This document shows positions 30,189 through 50,095 of a DNA stretch of 64,000 nucleotides, in pieces. Numbering within the stretch: position 1 is the stretch's first letter; each line of letters opens with the position of its first letter. The stretch spans positions 1,731,668 through 1,795,667 of the forward strand of contig NZ_OZ253579.1 of assembly GCF_965263005.1 (NCBI RefSeq), read 5' to 3'. The DNA is from Candidatus Rariloculus sp. (GTDB lineage Bacteria > Pseudomonadota > Gammaproteobacteria > Steroidobacterales > Rariloculaceae). The notes under the pieces are model-generated. The model did not search any database. It was not told where the DNA came from and saw only the letters and a program-made list of their open reading frames with translations. The translations under genes were made by a program, and so were the position numbers.

Positions 30189-30207
30189 TTTCTATCCCCT
30201 CATCGAA

Positions 30208-30375: not shown

Positions 30376-30391
30376 ACCCGCTCCATGGACT

Positions 30392-30433: not shown

Positions 30434-30614
30434 TGGACAAGGCATGCACAACTCCGCCAGTGGCGAGACCCAACGCAAGACTTCAAGAGTTGAATCTGGC
30501 AGCATATTGAGGAACAACGGATTCCACCTTAAATTAGCTGCCAAACTGTCCAGCGTTTGGCGTCCACTTCTCCTACGCGAACTGTCACCCTGAACACGCT
30601 GGAGGGCGCCGTAC

Positions 30615-31685
30615 ATGAACGTTGCGAGAATCTCAGGCTACCTTGCGTTTAGGACGGTAATTGCCGCAGCTCTCGGCCTGCTAATTGCTTCGCAATTGGC
30701 GGGCTGCTCGCGAGGTATCGGCACCGCTCCAGATAGCGATTCGCTGTATGCGCTGGGCGAGGCGGAGCGAAATGAAATATCACCCGAGCTGGCGCCAATC
30801 TTCAATCGCGAAGGTTTGCCAAGGTCGTCTAACATCATCACCGTTTACCACAGTGACGGATACGAACACCGCATTGCAGAAGTTCGCGAACTGGTCGTAG
30901 AGGGCATGGACTTCTACAACAGTAAGCTGGGAATCGACAAGGTTGTCAATGTCGCAATCTTGGATCGAGGAGATTGGCAAGTGGTCAGCGGAGACTTGCC
31001 GTACGGTCTTCCATTCGTTTCGGGGTTTGATGATCCAATTGTTGTCCTTCCGGCGACCGATGATGGCGTTTTGGGGATCGGTGCCAACGCCATGAAGCAA
31101 TACGCGTCGACGGAAACAATGGCGAAACTTTCTGATGTGGGCATGGATTTCGAAAAAGGCGCGCGATTGTTCGTCAACGCAATCGCGCTGCATGAACTTG
31201 GTCATGTCTACGGTGATCTGTATCGCATTCAACCGCGAACCAACTGGTTCGCGGAGTTCCTGGCGACCTACATTGGCTATGTTTTTCTTCGCGATCGCCG
31301 CCCCGAACTCGCGACGGTGTTCGAAGTGTACGCATTTCACCTCAACAATGACGCGCCGGGTCCACAGGACCGAAGTCTAACGCGATTTGAGCGGGAATAC
31401 GGCGGCGTTGGACCCGACGATTACGCTTGGTATCAGGGCATGTTTCTCGATCTCGCAATACGGCTCTACGATGATCATGGCGTCGGCTTGCTGGACGAGT
31501 TCGGGCAGCATTTTCCCCCGGAAGACGGCGGGATCACGTTCGATCTACCGGACGATCGTGATCGGGACTACCTCGAGAGAGAACTTGACGTCTTGGATAA
31601 GATCAGCCCGAAGATACGGGACTGGGCCGAGCGTCTGCAGGCAGCCGCGCTTGCACAGACGGTGGGAACATCGGAAAGCAGATGA
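30615..31685 (+). CDS. lipoprotein with HExxH zinc-metallopeptidase motif
   Basis: 356-aa ORF. Lipobox QLAGC. ALHELGHVYGD (HExxH). Visibly lower GC than its surroundings. No closer family recognised. Confidence 0.7.
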   Translation: MNVARISGYLAFRTVIAAALGLLIASQLAGCSRGIGTAPDSDSLYALGEAERNEISPELAPIFNREGLPRSSNIITVYHSDGYEHRIAEVRELVVEGMDFYNSKLGIDKVVNVAILDRGDWQVVSGDLPYGLPFVSGFDDPIVVLPATDDGVLGIGANAMKQYASTETMAKLSDVGMDFEKGARLFVNAIALHELGHVYGDLYRIQPRTNWFAEFLATYIGYVFLRDRRPELATVFEVYAFHLNNDAPGPQDRSLTRFEREYGGVGPDDYAWYQGMFLDLAIRLYDDHGVGLLDEFGQHFPPEDGGITFDLPDDRDRDYLERELDVLDKISPKIRDWAERLQAAALAQTVGTSESR

Positions 31686-31799
31686 CGTTCCAGGGCGATG
31701 CGACGGGCAGGCTGAGATTTGCAAAGCCGGCCTATTCCACACTCAATCCGCCCAGATGCGGTCCTGCAGCGAGACTAATGGGCAACATAGAGCCTGGCA

Positions 31800-31950
31800 T
31801 CGCGAGCGAACGACCCTTCCGGTCGATCGCGCTGAGCACGCTTTTTTTCAGCAGCCGGTTCTCGAGCATCATCTCGGCCAGGAGTTCTTTTAGCTGAACG
31901 GCCTGGCGCCATTGGCGGATGCGCGGCTCGTCGATGCGCAGATGGCCGGC
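31800..31950 (-). mobile_element. IS3-family OrfA (leucine-zipper region) remnant
   Basis: Within ORF 31732..32247. IRQWRQAVQLKELLAEMMLENRLLKKSV resembles the ...LKKLLAEAMLDNAALK... C-terminus of IS3/IS407-group OrfA. No intact transposase follows. Confidence 0.45.
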
Positions 31951-32071
31951 TTGGAAGCGACCGTCGCGAATCGGTCCTGCGCGAGTGGCGGACACGTGGC
32001 CGGCCCATCTGTGAGTGGCCGATGTGGTACCGTCCGGCGTATCGACGATGCATGCTGGCAGGAGTACGAAC

Positions 32072-32474
32072 ATGAGCGGATTTCTGTCGCGGCGGGAGAT
32101 GCTCAAGCGCGCGGCTCGATGCCGTCGACGCGCATGCACGCGATACGGCCGGTCAGCCGTTCGCGGAACTCGCCGCAAACCAGCAGGACGCGGTGCTCGG
32201 TGACCTCGAACAGAACGTCGGCGACGGATTCGAGCCTGACGCCGCAACGTTCTTCGACATGGTCCTGCAGCACACGATAGAGGGAACGTTCTCTGACCCG
32301 CAGTACGGCGGCAATCGCGACTTCATCGGTTGGGAGATGCTCGGCTACCCGGGGCTGCGTCTCGCCGTCGGCCCGAACGAACAGACAATGGATGCGCGTC
32401 CCGAGATGACGCGGCTCTCCGCCTACGATCTGCCGATGTTCGATTCGCCCGACAGCGAGGGTGACTCGCCGTGA
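32072..32474 (+). pseudogene. gluconate 2-dehydrogenase subunit-3-family protein, frameshifted or internally deleted
   Basis: The Tat signal MSGFLSRREMLKRAA (ATG 32072) is in a different frame from the conserved C-terminal part ...FFDMVLQHTIEGTFSDPQYGGNRDFIGWEMLGYPG (ORF 32193..32474). Confidence 0.6.
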
Positions 32475-33055
32475 CCGTCACGCTTGCGGGCACGGATGTC
32501 GCCGTCATCGGCCTCGGGGGCGTCGGCGGCGTGGCCGTGCTGCCGCTCGCAGAAGCTGGAATGGACGTCGTCGGGCTCGAAGCGGGCACCTGGCGATCGG
32601 CGAGCGACTTCGCGCCGGACGAGTTGCGCAACAACTACCGCGGCTGGCCGCAGGCCGCGCAGAAGGCCAATCGCGAGATTCCCGTGCATCGGCCGAACGC
32701 GTCGGCGCCGGATTCGCCACGCGGCAGCGTCCATCCGATGATGAACGGCGTCGGCGGCACGACGCTGCATTACTGGGCGCAGAGCTGGCGGCTCAATCCC
32801 TGGGACTTCCGGGTCGTCAGCGAGACGACGCGCTGCTACGGGGCGGCACGCATTCCTGCCGGCTCTACCGTCGAGGACTGGCCGTTCGGCCTCGAGGAAC
32901 TCGAGCCGCACTACGACCGCGTCGAGCGCGAGGTCGGCGTTTCGGGGCAGGCCGGCAATGTCAACGGCGCCATCGACGAGCGCGGCAACGTCTCGGACTT
33001 GCCCGAAGGCCGGTTGAGGCGAACAACGCTTCGTCTGCCAACGCTGCAAGCCTGA
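32471..33055 (+). pseudogene. GMC-family flavoprotein oxidoreductase, N-terminal third only
   Basis: 194-aa ORF. FAD fold DVAVIGLGGVGGVAVLPLAEAGMDVVGLEAG. Family similarity ends near ...GNVNGAIDERGNV (~32990). Full-length homologues are ~550 aa. Confidence 0.65.
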
Positions 33056-33184
33056 TCGCCCCCACCGCTGTCCGTCAGTTGCACAAAGATTGCGTGCCAG
33101 TCACCGGCGCCATGCTGCAGGACGTACGGACGGAAAGGAATACGCTATGCTTACCGAGATCAGCTCGCAGCGAGGAGGCATCGC

Positions 33185-33589
33185 ATGCGTGTCGTAGGAA
33201 TCCTCTCGATTGTCGCTTCCTTCGGGTTTGCCGCGGCGCCATCGACTCTGGCGCATCATTCGTTCGCAGCGCAGTTCGACCCGACCAAGCCCGTCACCCT
33301 TGAAGGAACGGTTACCAAGGTCGAGTGGCGAAACCCCCATATCTGGGTATACCTGGACGTCACCGACGCCGATGGCGCTGTGACTTCCTGGGAATGTGAA
33401 GGCGGGGCGCCGAACGCACTCACAAGACGGGGATGGAGCAGCCAAACCTTGAAGCCCGGCTCCACGCTCGAGATTCATGGCTACCTCGCAAGAAACGGGA
33501 CCAATACCTGCAACGCTCGAACGTGGATCTATGAGGGTCGAACCGTGTTCGCTGGGGAAGCCAGCGACGGCGGCCCCTCGCCTGATTAG
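33185..33589 (+). CDS. small secreted A|HH...NPH module protein (DUF6152-like)
   Basis: 134-aa ORF. Signal peptide ...APSTLA|HHSFAAQFDPTKPVTLEGTVTKVEWRNPHIWVYLDV...RRGW...KPGSTLEIHG. Confidence 0.8.
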   Translation: MRVVGILSIVASFGFAAAPSTLAHHSFAAQFDPTKPVTLEGTVTKVEWRNPHIWVYLDVTDADGAVTSWECEGGAPNALTRRGWSSQTLKPGSTLEIHGYLARNGTNTCNARTWIYEGRTVFAGEASDGGPSPD

Positions 33590-33620
33590 AGCCAAAGTCT
33601 TCCGTAACGGAGAACCTCCG

Positions 33621-34457
33621 ATGAGACACGCAAGTTTAGTCGTCACCAGCTCGGTCACGATGGCTGCGGCCTTGAACCTCTGGTTCCTCGCAGTGTCGCC
33701 GGCGTTCGCACAACGTGCCGTGTACGAGCGCAACGTTGTCCTTACGGAACAACCCGAGCCGGACGGCACGCCTGTTCCACGAACGGCTGACGGGCGCGCG
33801 GACCTCAGCGGAGTCTGGAACAAGGCGATTCACCAAAACACCGCTGCGCCCGTCGAACCGCTGCCTTTCACGCCGGACGGGCTGAAAGCGTTCAACGACG
33901 TGGCGAACATCATCGATCCCACGGCGCGCTGCATCCTTCCTGGCGTGCCGCGCGTCAACAACTCACCGTACCCGATGCAAATCATGCAGATGCCGGACCG
34001 GGTCGTCTTTGTCTATGAGTACATGCATAACTTCCGGGTGATCTATACGGACGGGCGTGGCCACCGTGAGAACTGGGAGGCTTCCCTGATGGGTGACTCG
34101 ATCGGCCGCTGGGATGGCGACACGCTCGTGATCGATACGGTAAACCTGACCGATCGAACACGTCTCGATGATCACGGCAACGTGCACAGCGACGCACTGC
34201 ACGTGATCGAGCGCTGGCGTCGCATCAGTGCGAACGAGCTGTGGTACGAAGCGACGATAGACGACCAGAAGTACTACACGGAGCCCTGGACAACCGGTTA
34301 CGTCATTCCTCTGGCCCCGCCGGATTGGGAGATCATGGAATACGCATGCACCGACAACAACAAGGACCTGTACGACGGCCACCTGCAGCCTGGCTCTCTC
34401 AGCGGATCGGGGCGGGATGGCACGGCGCTCGCTACGCCACCGATTTCGAGGGAGTGA
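33621..34457 (+). CDS. secreted 'GxWxGDTLV' two-Cys module protein (family member P2)
   Basis: In ORF 33477..34457. GGAGA RBS precedes ATG 33621. Signal peptide. ARCILPGVPR...FRVIYTDGRGH...DSIGRWDGDTLVIDTVNL...HSDALHVIERWRRI...EYACTDNN. Confidence 0.8.
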   Translation: MRHASLVVTSSVTMAAALNLWFLAVSPAFAQRAVYERNVVLTEQPEPDGTPVPRTADGRADLSGVWNKAIHQNTAAPVEPLPFTPDGLKAFNDVANIIDPTARCILPGVPRVNNSPYPMQIMQMPDRVVFVYEYMHNFRVIYTDGRGHRENWEASLMGDSIGRWDGDTLVIDTVNLTDRTRLDDHGNVHSDALHVIERWRRISANELWYEATIDDQKYYTEPWTTGYVIPLAPPDWEIMEYACTDNNKDLYDGHLQPGSLSGSGRDGTALATPPISRE

Positions 34458-34643: not shown

Positions 34644-34720
34644 CGGGGTGTAGCTCAGCCTGGTAGAGCACTGTCTTCGGGAGGCAGGGGCCGGAGGTTC
34701 AAATCCTCTCACCCCGACCA
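34644..34720 (+). tRNA. tRNA-Pro (anticodon CGG)
   Basis: 77 nt, folded by hand. Acceptor CGGGGTG/CACCCCG, D arm GCTC...GAGC, anticodon stem CTGTC/GGCAG with loop TTCGGGA (CGG), T arm GGAGG-TTCAAAT-CCTCT, encoded CCA. Close to E. coli proK. Confidence 0.93.
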
Positions 34721-34788: not shown

Positions 34789-35328
34789 CTATAGCTCCGC
34801 AGGCTCCACGATACTGAATCCGGCGACATCAACCGCCTGGCGCGAGACCGTGCCGAAGTAGCGGATGGCGCTGGCGCCGGCCACGGCGCCTGTCAATGCG
34901 CCGCTGACCATGGTCAGCCTCAGACTGGACGCGCCGGCCAGGTTGACGTGGGCATCGATGAAGACAAAGCCATCCAGCTCGATATCGCCGGCCCCGGCCA
35001 GCGACAGGTCGAGTTCGTCATAGCGACTGTCATTGCCGACTATTCGGGTCGCGCCGGCGACATCGATCAAGAGGCGCTCGCCTTCGAAGCCGGAGAGCGT
35101 CAGGTGGCTGCTGCCGGCCGCGTCCAGTTCCGCCAGCGCCGGCATGACGATTTCCGCGGAGAACTCGCTGCTCGACCGTCCGAAAAACGATCCCGGCTTC
35201 GCGCCGGTCAGGGTGAGCCGCTCGCCGCGCACGGATGCGTCGACGGATTCGACGCCATCGTCGGTAGAAAACAGGTCCACCTGCCAATCTTCACCTTGGG
35301 TTATGGTGACGGTCCACTGGCCTCCCAT
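34789..35328 (-). pseudogene. DUF2807 / head-GIN-domain protein lacking N-terminus
   Basis: 179-aa ORF. Repetitive beta-helix-like pattern (LTLSGFEG...IDVAGATRIVG...LSLAGAGDIELDG...VNLAGASSLRL). No signal peptide or N-terminal region. Abuts the GntR fragment in another frame. Confidence 0.5.
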
Positions 35329-35402
35329 TCGCCCTGCAGGATGCGGTCGCGGATCTGGTCCGCGATCTGCAGGTAAATGCTTCTGGGCTCGCTAAACTCC
35401 AT
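35301..35402 (-). pseudogene. GntR/YtrA-family regulator N-terminal ~25-aa fragment
   Basis: Manual translation from ATG 35402 gives MEFSEPRSIYLQIADQIRDRILQGEW..., the typical start of GntR wHTH regulators. It then runs into unrelated sequence and a stop. Confidence 0.45.
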
Positions 35403-35465
35403 CGCTGACCTGCGTCTCCCGAACTCTGAGCCAGGCGATCTTCCAGCACGCCATTGGCAGCAGGA

Positions 35466-35940
35466 TCACGAAGATCGTCTGGAGTGTCTCGCCCAACAAA
35501 GCCAGTCTCCGGTATAGACCAGGCCGTCAACTGCTTCGGGACGATGCCCGCTGACGGAAAAGCGCAGGTAGCCGCGCAGGTCAGACGCAGTCCGGTTCAG
35601 CAGCACGCGGCCCTCATGAACGATCACGATGCGATCCACAAGCGATTCCACATCCCTGACCTGGTGTGTCGAGACCACGATGGCCTGCTCTTCGTTGATC
35701 GCTTCGGCCACAAGGCGCCTGAAGATCCCCTTCGACGGGATGTCGAGGCCGTTGGTCGGCTCGTCCAGAAACATGAGCGAGGTGTTGCACGCCAGACCGA
35801 ATGCCAACAGGAACTTCTTCTGCTGGCCGTGCGAGAGTTGTGTCAATCTCCTGTCTTCGGGGATCTCGAACTCCTTGAGCTACCGTTGCATTCGGGTTTG
35901 ATCGAAATCCGGATAGAGAGGGAGCGCACGGCGACTTAGT
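35466..35940 (-). pseudogene. ABC transporter ATP-binding protein, C-terminal half with in-frame stop
   Basis: ORF 35466..35846 has the signature LSHGQQKK and Walker B LMFLDEPTNGLD. Upstream in frame: ...YPDFDQTRMQR*LKEFEIPEDRRLTQLSHG. The Walker A region is absent. Confidence 0.65.
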
Positions 35941-35987
35941 CGCGGTATTCTGCCGGGCTTTCGCTTTCGAGTGGACATGGACGAAGT

Positions 35988-36803
35988 CTAGAGGAAGCTG
36001 TGCGGCCATATCATCGTGCGCCACATGTGGGCGACAGGCGAACCGTCAAATCCGAGGCCCTCGCGTGGTTGCCTGAAGTTTCGGCCGACGACATCTTCGA
36101 ACTGATCGATCGAAAGGTCTGTGACGTTTGGATCGAACGCATACAGGTCATTGAGCATGATCAAACGTGCCGTCATGTACCAGCGGTGGTTGCGTGCCTC
36201 GTCGTACTCAGCCTGTACCCAGGGTTCGACTTCATAGGCCTCGCCGAACCAGGCGCGATAGCTCGCGGGGTAGTCATAACCTACGGCTTCGTCTGCGAAA
36301 AAGCGCAAGGCCTGGTGTTTTTGCACGGCCCAGGCAACTTCTTCATCGACGTAAGGTGCGATGAGTTGAGCGGCATAGAACCCGTGGTCCATCCGGATGA
36401 ACGCCTCGACGGAAATGTCGTGAAGGAGGCAGGCCAGGATGACCTTCTCGTCCATGCCCTCCTGCATAGCCAGATTTGCGCTCTGCAACAGGTGGGCAGG
36501 ATTGGCCATCCGGTGCCGAAATATGTCTAGCAGCGTCGGTCTCTCCGGCATTCGGGGCAGTCGCGGATCATCCATTCCGGCCATGTATTTCGACGGCGGT
36601 GCTCCTCCCTGCGAGTTCGATCCAGGCGGCGCCATCGAACGAGGCTCATCCGGCTCACACAGGAATGGTTTCTCTATGTGTCGCGCCAGGCCGTCGATCA
36701 TGACTCCTTCGAACGCTTCCGCGCGTTGACTGAGCGTCATTTCGGCGGTGAAAGTGGCTGCTGCCGCCGCGGCAGTGCAGTTCATGAAGGTGCGCCGATC
36801 CAT
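35988..36803 (-). CDS. Tat-signal HD-domain protein (PhnZ/MIOX-like superfamily, tentative)
   Basis: 271-aa ORF. MDRRTFMNCTAAAAAA (twin-Arg). HLLQSANLAMQEGMDEKVILACLLHDIS (HD motif). 15 nt downstream of the TonB receptor gene. Confidence 0.65.
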   Translation of the reverse strand: MDRRTFMNCTAAAAAATFTAEMTLSQRAEAFEGVMIDGLARHIEKPFLCEPDEPRSMAPPGSNSQGGAPPSKYMAGMDDPRLPRMPERPTLLDIFRHRMANPAHLLQSANLAMQEGMDEKVILACLLHDISVEAFIRMDHGFYAAQLIAPYVDEEVAWAVQKHQALRFFADEAVGYDYPASYRAWFGEAYEVEPWVQAEYDEARNHRWYMTARLIMLNDLYAFDPNVTDLSIDQFEDVVGRNFRQPREGLGFDGSPVAHMWRTMIWPHSFL

Positions 36804-36818
36804 CGTGTAATCCAGGAG

Positions 36819-39382
36819 CTAGAAACGGTACCTGAATTCGACGCCGACCTGACGAGGCACGCCGACGTTCACCAGCGTGATCGCCGGCGGCGCGTTTCCC
36901 CTGGGGTTCAGCGACGCAATGCCGGTGAACACGTACGCCGGATGGTTATCGGGCTTGTATGGGAACACCGTGTTCGATGTGCCTCCAGCCCATGCCGCGC
37001 CACCAGTGATGTATTCCTCGTCGGCACAGTTGGTGCAGTACAACGATGCGTTCCAGGTGCCATCCGGCGGCGTGTAGCCGACGCGCAGGGTGAGCAGATC
37101 GTATTCCGGGATTCTAAGTGTCGTCGAATCCTGTCCGCTTGAGTTCTGCTCGTCTTTGTAGGCATAGTCGATCGATGCTCTGATGATCGCACCCGAGTTC
37201 AGGTCCCAGGTGTTGGATAGGCCGAGGTTGTAGCCGAGATCCGGGGCACGGCTGAAGTTGGAGTCGAACTCGACCCCCGACGTGAGATTCAGGATTTCAT
37301 CCCAATTGGCATCCAGCGTGCCGGCGCCGAGCTTGAACTGGAGCGAGTCGGTCAGAAGCGCCTGAAGCTCAAGCTCGACGCCCGAAATCTCGGCCGAGCC
37401 GACGTTGATCGTACAGCGCCTGGCGCACCGCGTGTCAGCGGTCACTGTAAGCTGCTTGTCTTCGTAGTCCATCTGAAAGTACGTGACGTTTGCGCGCAGG
37501 CGGCCGCTTGCAGACTCGATGCGCGTTCCAATCTCGTAGTTCCAGACTTCCTCGGGCTGAAACGGTGTATCGATATCGTCCGGCTGATCGTTCGTGCCAC
37601 CGGACTTGAAGCCCTTCGAGGCCGCGGCATACAGCATCACGATATCGGTAGGCTGCCATTCGAGCGCGACGCGCGGTGTCACCGACTCGAACGTATCCGT
37701 GCCGGAAAGTGTAGCGGCAGCGGCGGACGGGACGATGTTCTCGTTGGCATCGAGGAAACACGGATTCGTGGCTGTACAGCCGCCGTAAGTGTCACCATCC
37801 GGGTTAACGTACAGTACATTTCGACCCCCCCGTCGATCGATATCTCGATAGTTCGAGTTGTTGTCCGGGCCGTTAGGGTCTATTGCGTGGATTTCGAACA
37901 GTCGCCGATCGAGTTCGGCGTCGAAAACACCGAGGTTGTACGCCGCGTACGACTTGTCGTCTTCGGTCCAACGCGTGCCGAGCGTCAGCGTGAAATTCTC
38001 ACTGAACTGCCAGTCCACCTGAGCGAATATGCCGGTGCTATCGGTTTCCTCCTGTGCGTTTGTGAGATGTTCGAGTGCGCCCCACTGGAATCCGCCCGCC
38101 CATCGGTAATCCTTGTTCGACAATAGCCTCAGGCCAGGTTCTTCGACCGAATAGTAGAGCCCCGCGACCCAGTTGAGTCGGTCGCTTTCCGAGACGCCAT
38201 TGAGCTGAAACTCCTGCGACCAGAAGTCGCTGAAGTTGTTCGTGCCGCCATCGAAGAACGATTCGGCGTACATGCTTTCGTCCGACTCGCGTTGCTCAAG
38301 TGTGTCCATGTCGCGCCAACCGGTGATCGAGCGCAATGTCAGCCGGTCGGAAATGTCGTAGGAAATGTCGAGCGTGACACCGGTGCTCTCGGCCGTGGTA
38401 AAGCCGATAGGGCCGGTTCCTGCAACGTGGTACAGGCTGTCCGGGATCGACGGTGCGTAATGTTCGGGTGTGCCCGCCGGAAAGATCGTTTGATAGGCAG
38501 CCAGATTCGAGATGCCGCCAGTAAAGATTGGCGCCCCGGTGTCGCCCTCGATTTGGGGAGTCGCCGGATCATCCCAGCCGCCGTTGAAACCGAAGTAATC
38601 GATCAACTTCGATGCGCCGCCATTCGATTCCGACTCGCTGCGGTTGATGTTGATGTCGATCGTCAGGTCATCGGACGGCTGGAACCGGAATTGCGCAGAG
38701 AAGTAGTCCGTATCGTCGGCACCAAGCCCCGCGCCGTCGGACAGGCGCTCCAGATAACCGTCGCGTTCCAGATGCGAATAGGCGAAGCGCGCGGCGGCAT
38801 TGTCGCCAAGCGGCAGTTGATGGCTGCCTGAACGTTTGCCCGGTCGTAGTCGCCCAGACCGACCAACACGTCACCGGAGACACCGCCGCCGATGTCCGGC
38901 TTGACAGTCACGTAGCGGATCGCGCCACCGGTCGAGTTTTTGCCGAAGAGCGTTCCCTGCGGACCGCGCAGCACTTCGACTCGCTCGACGTCGAGGAGTC
39001 GCAGGAAGTTGGTGAACGGACGCCCGTAATACACGTCATCGATGTAGACACCGACGGCGGGATCGAGCACCGGACTGATGCGTGCCTCGTTGATGCCGCG
39101 TATCGAGAACTGGGCGCCCACGTTGGCACGGCCGGTGCCATCGCCGATGCTCACGTTCGGTACGAAATCGGCCATGGCCTGAGGATCGCTGATCCCGAGG
39201 CGATCTAGTGTGTCGGCCGACAACACCGTGATCGCGACCGGTACCGACTGCAGGTCTTCTTCTCGTCGCTGAGCGGTGACGAGGATTTCTTCGAGGACAC
39301 CCGCCTGTCCAAGCGCAAGCGGTGTGTAAAGAGGCACGGATACGGATGTCGCAATGGCAACGCTGAGCAGGCGCAGTTTCAT
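36819..39382 (-). pseudogene. TonB-dependent receptor with a single frameshift (or sequencing error) near 38815
   Basis: ORF 38663..39382 carries the signal peptide plus plug (EEILVTAQRREEDLQSVPVAITVL...LRGPQGTLFGKNSTGGAI). ORF 36819..38606 carries the barrel, ending ...VGVEFRYRF. After ...VQAAIN the family-like sequence LPLGDNAAARFAYSHLERDGYL continues in another frame. Confidence 0.85.
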
Positions 39383-39552
39383 AAGAGGCTCCCCACCGAA
39401 ACTGAAAGGTTTTCGATTCGATTCACGTGCCTACTAATAGCCAAACGAGGGATCGATCGCACGGAAAAAAGCTCTAATTGAAAGGAAATAAAGTGAAAAG
39501 TATCTGACTTGGGCAACAAGGAAGTGTAATAATATAGGGCGTTTCATTAGAG

Positions 39553-39567
39553 TTTTCTTGGAGAAAA
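39553..39567. promoter_or_regulatory. candidate LTTR box (T-N11-A dyad)
   Basis: TTTTCTtggAGAAAA, with perfect 6-bp arms. Lies in the AT-rich divergent spacer between the TonB receptor (39382) and the LysR gene (39614). Confidence 0.3.
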
Positions 39568-39613
39568 GATAAACGCGAGCGTACCGCGCCGCTGCGCTAT
39601 CGAGACTGTTTGG

Positions 39614-40915
39614 ATGACAGCAGAACACAGACCGGACTTGCCGGAAGCTTCTGAGAACGCGTTGAGTTTGCGGCACTTGTCGCGGGTTGTCTGTCTCGCG
39701 GAGTTTCACAACGTGGCCGAGGCTGCCGATCATCTGAGTTGTTCGCCGGCCGCCGTAACCAAATCCGTCAAGGAGATTGAAGGCATCCTCGGCGCCTCAC
39801 TGTTCGAACGCGTTGGCGGGGATTACCGAACGACGCTAGCGGGCGACATACTGAGCAGGCGGGCTCGTCTGGCTCGCGAGGCCTACCGACAGATCGACCG
39901 TAGTCTTGGCAATCCGGTTCGCCTCCCACTGCCGCCGATCAGCAACAAGCGCGGAACCGCGTTTCTCGCGGCCTTTGCCCATCGCAACCTGGACCAGGCC
40001 GCTCGCGAGATCAGGGTCACGATCAGCGCGATTTACGGCGCCATTTCAAACCTTGAGAAGTTCTTCTCGAGAGATCTTTTCGAGAGATCGAAGCACGGTG
40101 AACTCGTGCCGACGCCGTTCGCTCACGAGCTTGCGAAGGCGCTGAAGCTGGTCCGTGCTGAAGTCCGTTTTGCGGTCGAGGAGGTCGCTAGCCTGGCATT
40201 CGGTCCGCGCGGCAAGGTGCGGATCGGAGTCTTGCCCAGAGCGCGCGAGTATCTCTTGCCTCACGCCATCAACAAGCTCATTTCCGATTACCCGGAAGTC
40301 AACGTTCGTGTGCTGGATGCGCCGGGGCCGAATCTATTGCGCGCCGTGCTGTGCGGCGATCTTGATTTCATAGTCGGACCATTCAAGCCGAAGTCAAAGG
40401 AATCCGGTCTGGCGATGGCTCCGCTGGTGGTCGATCACTTCATCGCCATTGCACGACAGACCCATCCACTGGCGAATGCGGTTCGGCCAAACCTCGCTGA
40501 GGCCATCGCCAACTATGGATGGGTGGTCGGCGTTCCGCGCAGCATCGGCAGGCAGATTTTCCGGGAAATCCTCGCCGATCACGGGCTCAATGAGCCGCAA
40601 CAGCTAATAGAATCCAACTCCTTCTCACTGATAAGAGGCTTGTTGCTCGAGAAGGACTGGATCGCGTTGTCAACTGTTGCCGAGTTCTTCAACGCACCGG
40701 AATTCGGACAGCTCACGACACTGGATCTGCATTTATCACTCGGTTCGCAAGCCGATGCGGACCTGCCCATTTCGGTCCTGAAACGAGCCAATACGACGTT
40801 ACCTCCCGCGGCTCAGGTCACACTCGAATATGTCCATGCAGTTGCTGGTGAGATCAGGGCCGATCTCGAACGAGCGCGAACGCGGATGTTCACGCGGCTT
40901 GAGAGCGTCAAGTAG
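39614..40915 (+). CDS. LysR-type regulator with two tandem N-terminal wHTH domains
   Basis: 433-aa ORF. HTH-1 LRHLSRVVCLAEFHNVAEAADHLSCSPAAVTKSVKEIEGILGASLFER. HTH-2 FLAAFAHRNLDQAAREIRVTISAIYGAISNLEKFFSRDLFER. A single LysR substrate-binding domain follows (KVRIGVLPRAREYLLPHAI...). Confidence 0.8.
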   Translation: MTAEHRPDLPEASENALSLRHLSRVVCLAEFHNVAEAADHLSCSPAAVTKSVKEIEGILGASLFERVGGDYRTTLAGDILSRRARLAREAYRQIDRSLGNPVRLPLPPISNKRGTAFLAAFAHRNLDQAAREIRVTISAIYGAISNLEKFFSRDLFERSKHGELVPTPFAHELAKALKLVRAEVRFAVEEVASLAFGPRGKVRIGVLPRAREYLLPHAINKLISDYPEVNVRVLDAPGPNLLRAVLCGDLDFIVGPFKPKSKESGLAMAPLVVDHFIAIARQTHPLANAVRPNLAEAIANYGWVVGVPRSIGRQIFREILADHGLNEPQQLIESNSFSLIRGLLLEKDWIALSTVAEFFNAPEFGQLTTLDLHLSLGSQADADLPISVLKRANTTLPPAAQVTLEYVHAVAGEIRADLERARTRMFTRLESVK

Positions 40916-40939
40916 GGGTCACGCACGGAGTAAGCGACT

Positions 40940-41938
40940 ATGAATAACAACCGTGTCTCGTTTTTGTTGTGTGCCTGCGCTTTGCTGAGCGCACGGGCTG
41001 CAGTTGCTCACCACTCACATGCCAACATCGACCCTGAAGATATTCAGCGTCACACGGGCGTCGTGATGGAGTTCGGCTGGACCATGCCCCACGTTTACAT
41101 AAAGGCGATGGCGCCGAATCCGAACGGTGAACTCGTCGAGTACAGCATCGAGTTACTGCACCCGCCGGGTATGGCACAACGTGGATGGTCGCGCGACAGC
41201 TTCAAGCCGGGCGATCGCATTACTTGGGAAGGACCGGCCGATCGTGACCCGAATCGCTATTACTCCGGCCTTCGGTGGGCGGAGACCGGCAGCGGCGAGC
41301 GCTTGTCCATGGAGAGGTCGGAGTTGCCGACGGAGCCGTCCACGGACTTCAGCGGTATCTGGGTTCGGTCCCTCGGTGGTGCGCGCCCGGATTATCAGCC
41401 GCCGGCGGACTGGCCATACACTGATTTCGCGATGCCGCTCATCGCGAATTTCAACGAAGATCAGAATCCTCAGCTCGATTGTCAGAACCCCGGACCGCCG
41501 AAGTCGACGCTGCTGCCTTACCCGATAAGGATCAGTCGACCGGACGATCAGACGATCGTGATGGATTACGAGCTGCGCGAAGACCCGCGGATCATTACTT
41601 TTGACGCTACACGGGAGCCCGGCGACCCATCAAAGCTCGGGTACTCCGTTGCCAGGCTCGACGGCACCGCGCTCGTGATCGAAACGACCAATTTCGCTGC
41701 CGATCGTTGGGGCATTCAGACCGGCGTCGATTCCAGTGAACAAAAACATCTCGTTGAACGGCTGACGTTCGAGCCGGACGGCCTTGCGATCAACATTGAG
41801 ATGACCGTTACAGATCCGGTGTATCTGGAGGGGCCGGTGGTCGTCAATCGCAGATATGTGAAGGTGCCGGATCGGGAGCTGATCGTGGTCGAGTGTACGC
41901 GGGAGAGCGCTCGCCTGTTTCTCGAAGGTGGGCTCTAG
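40940..41938 (+). CDS. secreted fusion protein: A|HH module + two-Cys module (family member P3)
   Basis: 332-aa ORF. Signal ...SARAAVA|HHSHANID...WTMPHVYIKA...QRGWSRDSFKPGD. C-terminal part LDCQNPGPP...GYSVARLDGTALVIETTNF...KHLVERLTF...VVECT. Confidence 0.8.
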   Translation: MNNNRVSFLLCACALLSARAAVAHHSHANIDPEDIQRHTGVVMEFGWTMPHVYIKAMAPNPNGELVEYSIELLHPPGMAQRGWSRDSFKPGDRITWEGPADRDPNRYYSGLRWAETGSGERLSMERSELPTEPSTDFSGIWVRSLGGARPDYQPPADWPYTDFAMPLIANFNEDQNPQLDCQNPGPPKSTLLPYPIRISRPDDQTIVMDYELREDPRIITFDATREPGDPSKLGYSVARLDGTALVIETTNFAADRWGIQTGVDSSEQKHLVERLTFEPDGLAINIEMTVTDPVYLEGPVVVNRRYVKVPDRELIVVECTRESARLFLEGGL

Positions 41939-41969
41939 GGCCACAGCGACTCAGAGGAGACTTAGCAAC

Positions 41970-43211
41970 ATGCGAACTGTACTTCTTCGCTTTCAAGCGG
42001 CAGTTGCCGTACTGGCAGGAGCGTTCGTCGCGCCCGGTGTCACGCTGGCGCACCATTCGGCTATCGCATTCGACGAGACTCAATTCGTCGACGTGACCGG
42101 CACTGTCACCACGTTCATCTGGCGAAATCCTCACCTGATCGTGCATGTCGAAACCGAAGGGTCCGATGGCGAACCGGAGGTCTGGCCGATCGAAGGTCAG
42201 AGTATCGCGATGCTGATTCGAGCGGGATTCGACCGCGACGTGGTGCACGAAGGCGATCGAATTACGGTCAAGGTGTATCCGATGAAGAATGGGGAGCCGG
42301 GCGGGCTGCTGCAGGGTCTCATTTCTGCCGACGGAACCGCGTATTCGATGGACAGTGCAGATGCGCCGGAAAGGCGGCGCCAACCCGTGCCGTCTCTCGT
42401 TGCTTTTATTCCACCCCCGGAAAGGGAAACATGGCAAATGCGAGAGGAGAAGACGCGGCCGCCGAATCTGCCAATCGTCTCTGATGGCACGGGCACCGGA
42501 GACTCCGAGTCCGCGGGCCTGATGTCGGGAGCGCTCGACCCCGACAACCTCGCCAGGGAACGACCCGTGCCGCCGTTCGACCTGACCGGTGTCTGGCAGT
42601 TTCGCGGCGAGGATGAATGGCGCGCGAACTACGGGTCATACGAATTCAAGCCCATGCCCGAACTGACCCCGAAAGGCCAGGCATTCTACGACGCCTATAT
42701 GGAGGCCGCAGCGCAGGGGGATCGCTACTTCGACCCGACCGCGGAGTGCTACCCGGCCGGGATGCCGCGACTCATGACTCGCTATGGCTCCCTCATGATG
42801 CTGCAGTATCCGACTGTGATCTTCATGGTTTCGCGACTCAGTAACGAGTATCGCGTGATCTTTCTCGACGGTCGCGAGCGCCTGCCCGGTAGCCGACTGG
42901 ATCGCAACTGGAGCGGCGAGTCGCTGGGATACTGGGAAGGTGACACACTCGTCATCGAAACAGAAGGGTTTACGGACGAGAATCATCTGATGCAGGCTGG
43001 TGTCATCACGGGCACCCAGCTCAAGATCACCGAGCGATACCGATCGATCAACGATGGAAATACGCTCGTGATGGACTTTACCTTCGAGGATCCCGAGCAT
43101 TGGGTTGGGGAGTGGAACCACATTAAGTTTCGGGATCGCGTCCTGCGTTCCGACATAAAGGAAGCGAACTGCATACCGGCCGACAATCTCGCGCTACCGG
43201 GCCTGGGCTGA
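41970..43211 (+). CDS. secreted fusion protein: A|HH module + two-Cys module (family member P4)
   Basis: In ORF 41928..43211. GAGGAGA RBS precedes ATG 41970. ...PGVTLA|HHSAIAFDETQFVDVTGTVTTFIWRNPHLIVHVE. C-terminal part AECYPAGMPR...YRVIFLDGRE...ESLGYWEGDTLVIETEGF...ITERYRSI...EANCIP. Confidence 0.8.
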   Translation: MRTVLLRFQAAVAVLAGAFVAPGVTLAHHSAIAFDETQFVDVTGTVTTFIWRNPHLIVHVETEGSDGEPEVWPIEGQSIAMLIRAGFDRDVVHEGDRITVKVYPMKNGEPGGLLQGLISADGTAYSMDSADAPERRRQPVPSLVAFIPPPERETWQMREEKTRPPNLPIVSDGTGTGDSESAGLMSGALDPDNLARERPVPPFDLTGVWQFRGEDEWRANYGSYEFKPMPELTPKGQAFYDAYMEAAAQGDRYFDPTAECYPAGMPRLMTRYGSLMMLQYPTVIFMVSRLSNEYRVIFLDGRERLPGSRLDRNWSGESLGYWEGDTLVIETEGFTDENHLMQAGVITGTQLKITERYRSINDGNTLVMDFTFEDPEHWVGEWNHIKFRDRVLRSDIKEANCIPADNLALPGLG

Positions 43212-43227
43212 GCGCGGGAGGCGCATT

Positions 43228-43638
43228 GTGACCTTTGCAAGGGCACTACAGTTTTGCGGCATCGCGCTGTGGTCCGGATCGGTGGCGTTCGCCCAGGATG
43301 TCGCACTGACCGACATGGGTGTCTGGTTTCTCGGCGGCGAACGGGTTGAGGTCACTCGAACCGCAGGATAACGCGATGTTGCCGACTAAAATGTCGACAA
43401 CCACATCGTTGTAACGTATTTCGTGCCGGCGACCTCCGAGGTGAAGCCCGCTGTCGTAATGACGCCCGGCATGGGATTGCGTTCAGATATTTTTCTGAGC
43501 ACGGCAGACGGGCGAACCGGTTCGGCGGTTGACTTTCTGCGACGTGGGCACGCGGTGTTTCTCGTGGAGCGCGTGCATACGATGGCTGCAGGTTTCCCGA
43601 CGGGTACCGCGGACAACATTCTGCTGCCAGGACTATGA
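43228..43638 (+). pseudogene. alpha/beta hydrolase, N-terminal part, broken by stops and 3'-truncated
   Basis: GGGAGG RBS plus GTG 43228. Signal peptide VTFARALQFCGIALWSGSVAFA, then a stop at 43369. The family pattern continues in another frame (HIVVTYFVPATSEVKPAVVMTPGMGLRSDIFLSTADGRTGSAVDFLRRGHAVFLVE) and ends at the IS remnant. Confidence 0.55.
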
Positions 43639-43673
43639 GACCGGGTTCTTCAATGCTTATCGTCAGCTCGTAA

Positions 43674-43970
43674 TCAAGCCGGGCCACCCGATTGCTCTGC
43701 GTCTTCGGACAGGGCCAGGTCGACGATCGCCGACGTGGTTTCCTCAGGGATCTTGTTCCACGCCCGGCGCGGTCGAGGCGGGCGGTCCGCCAACGCCTCC
43801 ACGCCGCCCTCGGCATAGCGCCGGTACCAACCGTAGAACGTGGATCGGGGAATGCCCATAGGCGCCAGCGTGCGTCGCACCGACACACTGGAGCGTTCCA
43901 CCAATTTAATAGTCTCGAGCTTCTCCGGGGCCGTGTACCTCATATGCCGGCCTCCCCATCCGCGAGCGGC
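43674..43970 (-). mobile_element. IS remnant: N-terminal HTH part of an rve-type (IS3/IS481-like) transposase
   Basis: Within ORF 43674..44363. MRYTAPEKLETIKLVERSSVSVRRTLAPMGIPRSTFYGWYRRYAEGGVEALADRPPRPRRAWNKIPEE..., then it diverges. No integrase core. The same 5' end recurs at 30392-30433. Confidence 0.7.
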
Positions 43971-43974
43971 GAGG

Positions 43975-44336
43975 TCATTGGCATCGCAACCGAGATCGAA
44001 GATTTCCCTGACGGCGGCGGACCGGGCAAGTATTGGGACGCGCATTGGACGGTTATGGTGCCCGGTGTCGGTTCTCTGTACGGCTACGAGATCGAAACAA
44101 TCGTGGCAGATGAGTTTGAGGAAACCATGCAGATGCTCGCCGATGAGCAGTGGACCGGCAGTATCGAGCGCAGGATGACTTCGGGACCCTCTCCTGATGG
44201 TTATGGCGTGATCGTCGGAGGTACGGGCGCCTGGGAAGGGGCGACGGGCAGGTTCGCGGAAGTCATCCACTTCAGCCAGGCAGCGCCGGATGCCGAGCGG
44301 GTAGTGCAGATGGGACTTCGCTTTATCCTCGAGTAG
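43975..44336 (+). pseudogene. 5'-truncated gene, dirigent/allene-oxide-cyclase-barrel-like C-terminal part (tentative)
   Basis: C-terminal ~120 aa of ORF 43692..44336: EVIGIATEIEDFPDGGGPGKYW...GVIVGGTGAWEGATGRFAEV.... The GGTGxxxGAxG ending is typical of that fold. The upstream part of the ORF is antisense IS sequence. Confidence 0.35.
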
Positions 44337-44831
44337 CGATAGCGTTAAATCGATCTCGAGCACACGTCAACAATCGAAAGCTGACGCGCGAAATCGGCCA
44401 TACAGACGCCTCGTGCGCGCCGCCCGGTAGAGTGGTTCAGTTCAGCCGTCGCTGCAGGCGTAACCGCTGCTCGTGCCCCGCGGGTAAGCCGGGAGTCTGC
44501 CATAGACCTGCGCGGCCAGGCCGTGGGCGAAATCCAGCGTCACCTTGAGCGACAGATACGAATAATGCAGTAGCGACCTGGCGGCATCGGGGCCGTCCTT
44601 CAACCACACGTCCGGCGCGGCCTCGCCTTCGACGGCCTGCCTGTTGCCGCCATTCTGGCACGATTGTACCGATACGTGTCTATACTGTCGGACGGTAGAT
44701 GCCACGTTGGCTGGGGGCTGGCCTTCCGTGGCTTGCCATCTGCGGTCACTGGTGACACGAAGCGACTCCGCCGACCGCGGAGAAGAACTGGTCTTTCAGC
44801 GGACGGCAGGGAATTAACGAGGAGAGAATAC

Positions 44832-47027
44832 ATGGCTACTCAAAAGGCCTGGTTGCTGGGGATAAGTTTCGTCGCCGGCTGCAGCCAGATGACTCCGGAG
44901 ACACAGGTCATCGAGAGCGCGGCCGAGGCGCTCGGCGGGCGCGACCAGGTGCTCGCGGCTTCGACGCTCGTGATCGAAGGCCAGGGAATGGATGCGGGTG
45001 TCGGCCAGAGCCATGCGCCCGATGGGGAACTCTTTGCCTGGAGTCTCGACGACTATCGGCAGACCCTGGATGTCGCGAACGGTCGCGTGCGAACCGAGGC
45101 CACCAGGGTTCCCAGGTTCGACTTTGTGTTTCTTCAGCAGGCCGTCGATCAGGGCCTGGACGGCGACGTGGCCTACAACGTCGGTGGTAACGGCACGGCG
45201 ACACGCGCACCGGGTGCGGTGGCGACGGCCCGGCGCATCGACATGCTGCACCATCCGCTCACGCTGGTGCGAGCGGCACTCGATGCAACGGCAGTGGTCG
45301 GGAACTTGCGGGAAGACGGCGACGCACAGATGGTCGACATCACCACCTCGGAGGGGGACACGCTTTCATTGACTGTCGACGCGACGGGTCTGCCGATGTC
45401 GGTGACCTCGATGGCGTACAACGCAAATCTCGGTGACGTTGCCAGGGAAACGACGTTCGCAGCATACGACACGGTTGATGGCCTGCGGCTGCCGGCCCGG
45501 ATGACGACAACGCTCGATGGGGTGGTGATTCGCGATATCGAGGTCGCGCAGCAGGCGCTGGACGCCGATGCATCGGCGGCGATGGCTCCGGAGGCCGCGA
45601 GCGCCGCCGATCAGCCGCCCGATTCCGCTGCGGTGAACATTACGGTCGAAGAGATCGGCGCGGGCCTCTGGTTCCTTGGCGGCGAGTCGCATAGCAGCGT
45701 GGTGATGGAGTTCGAGGACCATCTGAAAATATGGGAGGTTCCAGTGGATGATCGCCGGGCGCTGGCGGTGATCGCTCAGGCGCGCGAGTTGCAGCCGGAC
45801 AAGCCGCTGACTCACGCGATCGTCTCGCATCATCATTTCGACCATTCGGGCGGCCTTCGAGCAGCGGTGTCCGAAGGCCTGACAATCATGGCTCATGCCG
45901 ACAACGAGGCTCTGTTCCAAGACCTCGTGGAACGCGGGCATTCGATAGTCGAGGATGCGCTGGCGCGCAATCCGCAGCCACTGACGTTCGTGGGCGTCGA
46001 CGGTTCACTGACACTGAGCGACTCGGCGCTCGACGCCGAGATTCATCACATTGACGGCAACCCGCATGCAACGACGCTTCTGATGATCCACGTCCCGAGC
46101 GAACGGCTACTCATTCAGGCGGACGCCTTCGAACCTGGACCGCCGTTGTTCCCGTTCGCCCAGAACATGGCGGAAAACATCGAACGGCTCGGTCTGGATA
46201 TCGAAACTCATGTGACCGCTCATGGAGGAATCGTCACTCACGAAGAGTTCATGGCGAGCCTCCCGACTAGCGTGGCGTCCGCGTTTTCCGGTGACGGCTC
46301 TGCGCTCATCGATATCTGGTCCGGCGGCGGGACCACGTTCGGGGTCTTCGTGCCGAACGAGGACGGCGTGTTTACGGTCGAAGGGGCCGCGGAGCTCGCC
46401 GGCAACGAGCTGCTCGACTACCTCTTCCTGGATCTCGAGGGCAACTACGACGCGGCGGCCGTGGACGTACTGATCGAGGGGCTTTCGACCGTCGATCTCG
46501 CGGAGCGGCCGACGGTGCTTGTCCGGCTTCCGACGATCGAACAGGCCGGTGAGGAACTCACCGGGCAGCGAGTCGAAGAGGTGCTCTTGCGCGGCGCCGA
46601 CGGCGTGATCTTTCCGCACGTTCTCTCCCCTGAAATGGCGGCCGCTACGGTCGGCTTCTTCGATGCCATCGGTGCGCACGTGTGGAGCCCCGACAACCCG
46701 GACGGCAGGATCGTCTCGATGGTCATGCTCGAAGATCGCGAGGCGATCGAGGCTGCCGCGCAGATCGCCGACGTCGGCGGTTACAGCCTGCTGTCATGCG
46801 GAATCGGCAGCCTCGGCAACGACCTGGGCAGCCCGGAAGCAGCCGAGGAGGGGTGCCTCGTGGTCCAGAACAACGCCGACCGCGTGAACATGCCGAGCAT
46901 GCAGTTGGCATTCGATACGGACGTGCTCGAGCGGCGCATCGATCTGGGTTACAGGGGGATCCTGATGCAGATGAACGACGGAACCGCGGACATCGTCAGG
47001 GCCGGCAGGGCGGCGACGGGGCGGTAG
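44832..47027 (+). CDS. lipoprotein: MBL-fold hydrolase fused to a C-terminal HpcH/HpaI-aldolase-like TIM-barrel domain
   Basis: In ORF 44664..47027. AGGAGAG RBS precedes ATG 44832. Lipobox FVAGC. MBL motif AIVSHHHFDHSGG. The last ~250 aa (DYLFLDLEG...VLVRLP...GADGVIFPHV...SMVMLED...) align loosely with HpcH-family aldolases. Confidence 0.7.
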   Translation: MATQKAWLLGISFVAGCSQMTPETQVIESAAEALGGRDQVLAASTLVIEGQGMDAGVGQSHAPDGELFAWSLDDYRQTLDVANGRVRTEATRVPRFDFVFLQQAVDQGLDGDVAYNVGGNGTATRAPGAVATARRIDMLHHPLTLVRAALDATAVVGNLREDGDAQMVDITTSEGDTLSLTVDATGLPMSVTSMAYNANLGDVARETTFAAYDTVDGLRLPARMTTTLDGVVIRDIEVAQQALDADASAAMAPEAASAADQPPDSAAVNITVEEIGAGLWFLGGESHSSVVMEFEDHLKIWEVPVDDRRALAVIAQARELQPDKPLTHAIVSHHHFDHSGGLRAAVSEGLTIMAHADNEALFQDLVERGHSIVEDALARNPQPLTFVGVDGSLTLSDSALDAEIHHIDGNPHATTLLMIHVPSERLLIQADAFEPGPPLFPFAQNMAENIERLGLDIETHVTAHGGIVTHEEFMASLPTSVASAFSGDGSALIDIWSGGGTTFGVFVPNEDGVFTVEGAAELAGNELLDYLFLDLEGNYDAAAVDVLIEGLSTVDLAERPTVLVRLPTIEQAGEELTGQRVEEVLLRGADGVIFPHVLSPEMAAATVGFFDAIGAHVWSPDNPDGRIVSMVMLEDREAIEAAAQIADVGGYSLLSCGIGSLGNDLGSPEAAEEGCLVVQNNADRVNMPSMQLAFDTDVLERRIDLGYRGILMQMNDGTADIVRAGRAATGR

Positions 47028-50061: not shown

Positions 50062-50095
50062 TAGCCCGCGATTCACGCCTGGCGACGCTCACGGC

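Follow-up and report, generated by a model that had tools for sequence, protein, structure and literature searches.

A receptor-centred locus with exported proteins in Candidatus Rariloculus, probably the decaying remnant of a larger nine-gene locus

Numerous bacteria of sea and soil obtain scarce organic substrates through receptor-centred uptake loci. Among the described systems closest to the locus considered here, DdvT of Sphingobium SYK-6 provides the precedent for a TonB receptor that imports aromatics (PMC6874591), while GalR of Pseudomonas putida is a LysR-type activator of the gal cluster that responds to 4-oxalomesaconate and has TATAG as a half-site of its published box (PMC9942251). 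In HD oxygenases, the di-iron centre is bound by an H...HD...H...H...D motif, and a substrate-gating YxxE loop has been defined for PhnZ and TmpB (PMC8177086). The present analysis concerns a five-gene block at positions 35988-43211 of a 64,000-nucleotide stretch of the Candidatus Rariloculus sp. genome (assembly GCF_965263005.1, contig NZ_OZ253579.1, positions 1,731,668 to 1,795,667 of the forward strand), which is referred to as the window and to which plain coordinates refer. The block is, with high confidence, the decaying remnant of a larger nine-gene locus, of which the LysR regulator and two exported proteins, P3 and P4, are still intact. The best overall explanation, which is favoured without being firmly held, is that this locus was centred on a TonB-dependent receptor and combined uptake with periplasmic oxidative processing of an aromatic-type substrate.

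The conserved divergent locus

All five genes of the block are real and are grouped likewise in related marine bacteria. A preliminary description, made from the letters of the window, had given their coordinates and the intergenic gaps between them (15, 231, 24 and 31 nt), and both were reproduced exactly by the open reading frame (ORF) map. The block is arranged as follows.

35988-36803, minus strand: HD-domain protein, 271 aa (ORF map, Pfam, NCBIfam and PDB searches, AlphaFold model)
36819-39382, minus strand: TonB-dependent receptor pseudogene with Plug and 22-strand-barrel-type domains, split at 38816/38815
39383-39613, strand not applicable: divergent promoter spacer, 231 bp, 44.6% GC, with blocks conserved in six loci
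39614-40915, plus strand: LysR-type regulator, 433 aa, with two tandem HTH_1 domains (19-77 and ~116-175) and an effector domain
40940-41938, plus strand: P3, 332 aa, with a Sec signal peptide, a DUF6152 (OB-like) domain and a beta-rich C-terminal domain
41970-43211, plus strand: P4, 413 aa, with the architecture of P3 and a longer linker

The complete form of the locus is found in L009 and L015, contigs of related uncultured Gammaproteobacteria, the latter from the NCBI metagenome-assembled genome (MAG) 'Gammaproteobacteria bacterium isolate jk18x22bins.30'. By blastn, window positions 35926-43598 form a single colinear high-scoring segment pair (HSP) of ~7.7 kb with L009 (85.9%) and L015 (86.6%). 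In both contigs, the receptor orthologue is intact (856 aa); the receptor arm continues from the receptor through the HD protein and a thiamine enzyme exported by the twin-arginine translocation (Tat) route to a cytochrome c, and the divergent arm runs from LysR through P3, P4 and a 330-aa protein to PhoD. Whether the five genes are syntenic elsewhere, and with an intact receptor, had been left as a question by the preliminary description, and L009 and L015 answer it in the affirmative. A scan of a genome collection yielded one named relative, an unclassified Gammaproteobacteria MAG.

The genes that these contigs hold in addition to the block encode a thiamine-diphosphate enzyme of 638 aa, whose N-terminus has the twin-arginine motif and begins SRLSRRAFIGSG, a c-type cytochrome, the 330-aa protein and a 704-aa PhoD. 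The thiamine enzyme and cytochrome genes lie at the following positions.

L009: thiamine enzyme 1100-3016; c-type cytochrome 663-1091
L015: thiamine enzyme 4451-6367; c-type cytochrome 4014-4442
L014, a more distant locus: thiamine enzyme 2894-4828; c-type cytochrome 2442-2882

In each of the three contigs, the gene for the twin-arginine thiamine-diphosphate enzyme has that for a small c-type cytochrome downstream of it; a literature search for such a pairing of cytochrome c with an exported thiamine enzyme found nothing.

More distant versions preserve the core of this arrangement. L013 and L014, whose LysR proteins are 56% and 50% identical to that of the window, keep the receptor divergent from a two-HTH LysR gene followed by a P3-like gene, with P3 58-63% and the receptor 45-74% identical to the window proteins. 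Both also hold a P4-like paralogue on the receptor arm and a thiamine enzyme, only L014 of the two keeps a cytochrome c, and neither has the HD protein. The L013 locus has Nramp and SDR genes as neighbours, while that of L014 adds HpaD (469 bits, above its cut-off), a second LigB, GST and an FMN alpha-hydroxy-acid dehydrogenase. PhoD closes the LysR arm in L009, L012 and L015 (232 bits), and L014 encodes a Tat PhoD-like protein. In L012, the receptor has been destroyed by an insertion sequence (IS) element and the HD protein is absent, while LysR, P3, P4 and PhoD are retained; since the window lost its receptor to a frameshift, at least two lineages have suffered independent damage to the receptor arm. 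A divergent locus of receptor, dedicated regulator and exported proteins is thus conserved, and the comparative data agree with the general reading of the preliminary description, namely outer-membrane import, exported enzymes and a dedicated LysR regulator.

Decay of the window copy and the limits of the block

In the window, the receptor is a pseudogene. It scores 70.3 bits for Plug (PF07715) and 132.5 bits for the TonB barrel (PF00593), and it consists of two ORFs (239 aa and 595 aa), so that the two domains do not lie within one intact ORF. Compared with the intact orthologue, it lacks one G, between 38816 and 38815. The sister strain L001, an independent assembly with 99.83% identity, 35 mismatches and no gaps over 20.8 kb, has the same frameshift and an additional stop codon at 37074. 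It is extremely unlikely that the frameshift and the flanking pseudogenes are assembly or sequencing errors in a locus that is intact in the cell. The nearest contigs do carry names like those of long-read metagenome assemblies (ctg..._18x_l), which are prone to indel errors; however, the deletion site is not a homopolymer, the deletion is shared by L001, which has 0 indels in the aligned 20.8 kb and a further nonsense mutation, and the flanking losses are kilobase-scale deletions rather than indels. Sequencing error was therefore rejected as the cause of the frameshift, on the grounds of the non-homopolymer site, the sharing and the extra nonsense mutation.

Between the window and L001, the receptor differs by four non-synonymous changes, one nonsense and one synonymous change, and the HD gene by three non-synonymous and two synonymous changes. 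Among the HD changes, H206L and G175S in L001 and T216M in the window affect residues that vary little or not at all within the family. Single-nucleotide polymorphisms (SNPs) number 11 in the receptor-HD arm and 0 in the 3.6 kb of LysR, P3 and P4, both being small counts; the differences in the receptor-HD arm, most of which change an amino acid, look neutral. Between species, dN/dS is 0.08-0.15 for all five genes, the frameshifted receptor included, and because these values are still so low for every gene, the inactivation of the receptor is recent. The pattern fits a relaxed constraint on the receptor-HD operon since the frameshift, and indirectly it would tie the usefulness of the HD protein to the function of the receptor. 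The system appears to have been captured mid-loss, with the receptor dead first and the downstream HD gene drifting after it, an indirect sign that HD function depends on the receptor. The outer-membrane import step that the preliminary description had placed in this genome is accordingly not sustained here, with a receptor pseudogene and a receptor-HD arm that seems to be drifting.

Over 25988-46803, the 35 SNPs between the window and L001 are clustered, 10 of them in 25996-26635 and 11 in the HD-receptor arm, with none in 38867-44177, which suggests patchy recombination or locally relaxed selection. Gene decay perhaps extends beyond the block, as short gene calls occur at 30000-33100 (equivalents at 13749-16189 of L001), among them pieces of Gluconate_2-dh3 (93 aa) and RidA (53 aa).

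The preliminary description had also reported gene debris on both flanks of the block. This debris is real and was mapped to intact genes of relatives.

34644-34720, plus strand: tRNA-Pro (CGG), left neighbour of the debris (ARAGORN, Rfam)
34798-35921, minus strand: decayed operon in the order ABC ATPase, 258-aa protein, GntR, DUF2807 (tblastn of the intact L012 operon, Pfam DUF2807, blastn)
35926-35978, minus strand: stub of the thiamine-enzyme gene, ~18 codons, MSTRKRKPGRIPRLSRRA... (alignment with L009)
43228-43617, plus strand: remnant of the 330-aa gene, residues 1-130, with in-frame stops at 43369 and 43387
43601-43786, plus strand: weak PhoD-like fragment, 39% identical to L009 PhoD (residues 145-225)
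43674-44363, minus strand: IS transposase remnant, HTH_28/HTH_32/HTH_23 N-terminal part only (Pfam, L001 gene calls)

The left debris consists of four in-order fragments left by several internal deletions, with ABC residues 99-235, residues 214-258 of the 258-aa protein, GntR 1-33 and DUF2807 64-238 surviving, whereas the intact operon stands beside the locus in L012 (17705-20406). Homology to L009 and L015 stops at about 35920-35926, where the HSP ends lie at 35926/35929. Because the debris partly represents lost genes of the locus itself, the block boundaries are deletion or rearrangement breakpoints, and the block, described earlier as self-contained, is instead the middle survivor of the nine-gene locus, flanked by stubs of the thiamine-enzyme and 330-aa genes. 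Deletion has reduced the genes for the thiamine enzyme, the cytochrome, the 330-aa protein and PhoD to stubs.

These boundaries bear directly on the origin of the block, for which the preliminary description had proposed a self-contained five-gene island acquired by recent horizontal transfer beside tRNA-Pro. Its impression of lower GC, gained by eye, is borne out: GC is 58.9% in the block and 63.6% elsewhere in the window, no other 7.2-kb stretch of the window is poorer in GC than the block, and only 0.7% of sliding windows are equally low. GC at third codon positions (GC3) is 0.67-0.73 in the block genes against a mean of 0.78 (sd 0.04) in 30 other ORFs (Mann-Whitney p=9e-4), so that both composition checks set the block apart from the remainder of the window. 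This composition favours an island, as do the IS remnant and tRNA gene at the block edges and a neighbourhood that differs from that in relatives. However, the GC dip is modest, and GC at the locus equals that of its flanks in L013 (0.57) and L014 (0.65), lying ~3 points below the flanks in L012 and L015. No tRNA was found near the orthologous locus in L009, L012, L013, L014 or L015, and a tRNA-linked island was rejected on that ground. The boundaries fall inside genes of the larger locus and are breakpoints of deletions, and no near-identical copies of the block were found in unrelated genomes. The left debris, moreover, is a decayed copy of the operon that adjoins the locus in L012, which argues for local rearrangement rather than insertion. 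Recent acquisition as a self-contained island is therefore very unlikely, and the region is best described as a flexible, IS-rearranged part of the genome rather than a recently landed island.

Components of the locus

The regulator is assigned by its sequence to a GalR-like subfamily of LysR proteins with two HTH domains. Tested singly, its HTH_1 halves score 45.9 and 40.6 bits (gathering score 26.6), and its LysR_substrate domain scores 90.6 bits; the best NCBIfam match is PcaQ (TIGR02424) at 150.3 bits, below the equivalog cut-off of 303.8. Relatives of this two-HTH LysR are few, 40 matches in total, and some are named 'regulator of gallate degradation' by JGI. Alignment and Pfam place the same tandem HTH_1 and LysR_substrate domains in homologues from Herbaspirillum (P0262), Pseudomonas and Variovorax (P0263 and P0258), to which the regulator is only 28-30% identical. 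A canonical gallate (gal) cluster, with PrpF, Amidohydro_2, RraA-like, MFS, LigAB and porin genes, surrounds the gene for the Herbaspirillum homologue, and for this reason the family is grouped with GalR; at such low identity, an effector in common with the gal-cluster regulator is not implied. A literature search on two-HTH LysR proteins found nothing.

In the spacer, three blocks are conserved over six loci: TTATAG..., GGAAAAAAAGTGAAA and CGGAGAAAAG. The A-rich block GGAAAAAAAGTGAAA and the TTATAG block are kept in the spacers of the window, L009, L012, L013, L014 and L015, and they persist even where regulator identity falls to 50%, which makes them candidate operator or promoter elements; the TATAG of the latter block recurs as a half-site of the published GalR box (PMC9942251). 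The single sigma-70-like match in the spacer, at 39504-39533 (+), is no more frequent than expected by chance, and promoter and terminator scans gave no matches in excess of shuffled sequence. An Rfam scan of the spacer for a riboswitch or other known RNA that could name the substrate found none.

The HD protein matches the HD family (PF01966) at 21.2 bits (E 3.8e-4), slightly below the gathering score of 22; about 6,500 homologues were found, many homologues have a precomputed PF01966 match, and the fold search favours an HD fold. Residues H104, H128, D129, D139, H140, H163, H206, D219 and H259 are invariant in the family alignment, and these include the six-residue di-iron motif (H104, H128, D129, H140, H163, D219), which is invariant in 26 sequences. 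The last three residues of the motif were matched to PhnZ and TmpB by spacing, not by superposition, H140, H163 and D219 showing spacings of 23 and 56, to be compared with 24 and 57 for the corresponding ligands of PhnZ. The AlphaFold model has a mean pLDDT (predicted local distance difference test) of 76.5 and a core that is mostly well predicted. Its ten best Foldseek matches are all PhnZ or TmpB (PDB 4MLM, 6NPA; E 7e-5 to 1e-3), followed, after a more than 100-fold gap in E-value, by HD hydrolases (E >= 0.15). PhnZ and TmpB are also the top PDB and NCBIfam sequence matches and the only specific ones.

The likeness has clear limits. Identity to PhnZ and TmpB is 16-20%, and the NCBIfam matches, TIGR03276 at 26.8 bits (cut-off 214.6) and NF049941 at 23.9 bits (cut-off 300), cover residues 102-131 only. 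The YxxE loop of PhnZ and TmpB lies ~10 residues ahead of the first His, where the consensus of the present family reads DFFxYRFxPAxH, with no equivalent Glu. Unlike PhnZ and TmpB, the HD protein has a putative twin-arginine signal, ~70 additional N-terminal residues, a C-terminal extension and no 2-oxoglutarate oxygenase gene as a partner. Scores far under the cut-offs and the missing loop rule out a true PhnZ or TmpB. In sequence and predicted structure, the HD protein resembles these enzymes as a distinct clade, with a predicted role as a di-metal oxygenase.

The N-terminus of the HD protein comprises MDRRTFMNC, an A-rich stretch and AEA, that is, a DRRTFMN motif with an A-rich h-region. 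An RR motif, M-[DNE]-R-R-x-F followed by an uncharged stretch, occurs in 92 of the 120 best homologues and is lacking in Burkholderiales-type homologues; the Tat model TIGR01409, with its cut-off of 16.7 bits, gives 26.1 bits for the homologue P0066 and 23.0 bits for P0090. Synteny anchored on the HD protein was rejected, as homologues at 78%, 70%, 60% and 57% identity lie in unrelated contexts, none beside a receptor, LysR or DUF6152 gene. Since the HD protein is also absent from L013 and L014, it is a clade-specific addition to the receptor operon and not, as had been supposed, a core part of the block.

P3 and P4 are members of an unstudied and very large family, in which an OB fold is combined with a beta domain. 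Against a gathering score of 27 bits, the N-terminal DUF6152 domain (PF19649) scores 57.9 bits in P3, 86.5 in P4 and 106.5 in a solo copy. Pfam DUF6152 spans only this ~100-aa N-terminal domain, and the fused beta-rich C-terminal domain of P3 and P4 is without a Pfam model. A profile search returned 16,360 clusters at 50% identity for the family, in fused and split forms, and because both forms occur, the two domains are likely to work together. The window itself holds at least eight genes of the family: three fused, two adjacent split pairs with overlapping genes, and two with the C-terminal domain only. They lie in the following intervals, on the strand shown where noted.

28248-29486: DUF6152/C-terminal-domain family
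33185-34457: DUF6152/C-terminal-domain family
40940-43211: DUF6152/C-terminal-domain family (P3 and P4)
54965-56083 (-): DUF6152/C-terminal-domain family
60032-61289: DUF6152/C-terminal-domain family
62678-63790: DUF6152/C-terminal-domain family

A PepSY_TM protein adjoins another DUF6152 pair at 58660-61289. The signal peptides of P3 and P4 end at A|HHS, so that the predicted mature N-terminus is His-His, as is seen after the predicted cleavage site throughout the DUF6152 family alignment; a PH motif follows ~27 residues later, and neither feature varies among the five DUF6152 copies of the window. In P4, the invariant residues are H28, H29, H55, C260 and C401, the two cysteines being in the beta-rich domain. 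The P4 model (pLDDT 66 overall, <50 for residues 22-31) shows an OB-fold N-terminal domain and a beta-rich C-terminal domain; the fold search resolved the OB fold only, with weak matches for the C-terminal domain, and a sequence search of the PDB with P4 gave no match. P4-anchored synteny, at 77% and 67% identity, was negative, and no mention of DUF6152 was found in the searched literature.

Proposed function, alternatives and comparison with known systems

In the favoured scheme of receptor-centred uptake and periplasmic oxidation, the two-HTH GalR-like LysR would control the divergent promoter region, and the receptor would import an organic substrate, probably of the aromatic or phenolic-acid type. 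P3 and P4, exported by the Sec route, may then bind or modify this substrate in the periplasm, where cofactor-loaded Tat enzymes, including the di-metal HD protein that resembles C-C/C-P-cleaving oxygenases, would process it oxidatively. The thiamine enzyme would pass electrons to cytochrome c, and a pathway intermediate may activate the regulator. An aromatic or phenolic-acid-type substrate class is put forward tentatively, the clues being the GalR/PcaQ-like regulator, the benzoylformate-decarboxylase-like thiamine enzyme, the HpaD, LigB, GST and FMN alpha-hydroxy-acid dehydrogenase genes of L014 and the example of DdvT as a TonB receptor for aromatics (PMC6874591).

Several points weigh against this scheme. 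For none of the components is a close relative characterised, so that the assignment of a substrate depends on neighbours in only a few contigs, and these neighbours vary (Nramp and SDR in L013; PhoD in L009, L012 and L015). Cytochrome c as the electron acceptor of the thiamine enzyme is a conjecture, and the P4 model is of low confidence. As its homologues occupy many unrelated contexts, the HD protein may not act on the imported substrate at all. The Tat signal ascribed to this protein in the preliminary description stands in part: the RR motif is conserved in the family and homologues pass the Tat model, but the N-terminus of the window copy scores 14.0 bits, short of the 16.7-bit cut-off. 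The helix that contains the predicted AEA site is conserved even in members without the RR motif, which leaves the cleavage position only putative.

Two other substrates are live, if less likely, alternatives. Phosphorus scavenging, in which the receptor would import an organophosphorus compound and a Tat PhnZ-like HD oxygenase together with a Tat PhoD-like phosphatase would release phosphate in the periplasm, draws on the facts that the only solved relatives of the HD protein are the C-P-cleaving oxygenases PhnZ and TmpB and that PhoD closes the LysR arm in three relatives and has a Tat counterpart in L014. The sequences, furthermore, come from marine metagenomes, and phosphate limitation is common in marine settings. 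It is nevertheless unlikely, given that the HD protein lacks the YxxE substrate loop (PMC8177086), falls far below the TIGR03276 cut-off, has no adjacent PhnY/TmpA-type partner and is absent from L012, L013 and L014, and that the regulator is GalR/PcaQ-like rather than Pho-type or phn_lysR (TIGR03339 at 66 bits against a cut-off of 341). Import of a metal chelate, with the DUF6152 proteins as periplasmic metal-binding proteins or metallochaperones, agrees with partial matches of the receptor to siderophore and haem receptor models and structures, with the invariant H-H and P-H of the five DUF6152 copies, with Nramp in the L013 locus and with the PepSY_TM gene beside a DUF6152 pair. Those receptor matches, however, are far below family cut-offs and lie mostly over the generic plug; the locus holds no Fur-type or ECF-sigma regulator, siderophore biosynthesis or ABC importer genes, and the thiamine enzyme, the ring-cleavage dioxygenases and the GalR-like regulator indicate carbon catabolism, all of which makes metal acquisition an improbable purpose.

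A bolder version of the periplasmic oxidative scheme has a slim chance of being right. DUF6152 would in that case be a large, unrecognised family of periplasmic metalloproteins with a histidine-brace-like site, formed by His-His and PH on the OB fold, and its partner, whether in the same protein or in a separate one, would be a beta-barrel domain for substrate binding; with the HD oxygenase and the thiamine enzyme-cytochrome c pair, it would constitute a wholly periplasmic oxidative pathway acting on a substrate imported by the TonB receptor. In the histidine brace of the LPMO (lytic polysaccharide monooxygenase), CopC and YcnI type, copper is bound by the amine and the imidazole of the mature N-terminal His and by a second His. 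The predicted N-terminal His-His makes these copper proteins a lead for DUF6152.

The window holds further features outside these subjects. A MITE-like (miniature inverted-repeat transposable element) sequence of ~165 bp is present in three same-orientation copies, ~90% identical, at 8424-8583, 23851-24011 and 27911-28071, with ~24-bp terminal inverted repeats GGCAGCCCGTGGCACAAGTCCCGC ... GCGGGACTTGCGCCACGGGCTGCC; no Rfam family matched it. An ORF of 787 aa at 44664-47027 has weak matches to two folds, a metallo-beta-lactamase-fold region and, at the C-terminus, a region like the HpcH/HpaI aldolases. At 48263-53985 (-), a DUF1592/DUF1588/DUF1587/DUF1585/DUF1595 protein with a cytochrome-c-like N-terminus is accompanied by a DUF1552 (HXXSHH) protein, after which come an ankyrin-repeat protein of 609 aa and a 2OG-Fe(II) oxygenase; a DUF1592-type and DUF1552 pair is typical of Planctomycetes.

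The locus joins four parts that are without a studied representative: a putatively Tat-exported relative of PhnZ and TmpB, an exported thiamine enzyme with its cytochrome c, a LysR protein with a duplicated HTH, and the two-domain DUF6152 family. Resolving any one of them would annotate thousands of hypothetical genes. Novelty resides in these uncharacterised families and not in the decayed window copy, for which the result is mainly a correction.

Among known systems, the thiamine enzyme of L009 is closest to benzoylformate decarboxylase, which is its best PDB match (4Q9D, 1BFD; E 2e-31) and its best NCBIfam match (169 bits, where the cut-off is 493); it differs in having a Tat signal, no detected middle domain and a c-type cytochrome gene next to it. 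The genes for the window regulator and P. putida GalR, the latter compared through its published description and not its sequence, are both divergent from a regulated operon, whereas the neighbours or targets of the former are the TonB receptor and the DUF6152 proteins, and those of GalR are the gal genes. Similarly, DdvT-type loci, by their description rather than their sequences, and receptor-centred substrate-utilisation loci in general share with this locus a TonB receptor among catabolic enzymes and a dedicated regulator; in the present locus, however, the enzymes are exported rather than cytoplasmic, and in the window the receptor has been inactivated.

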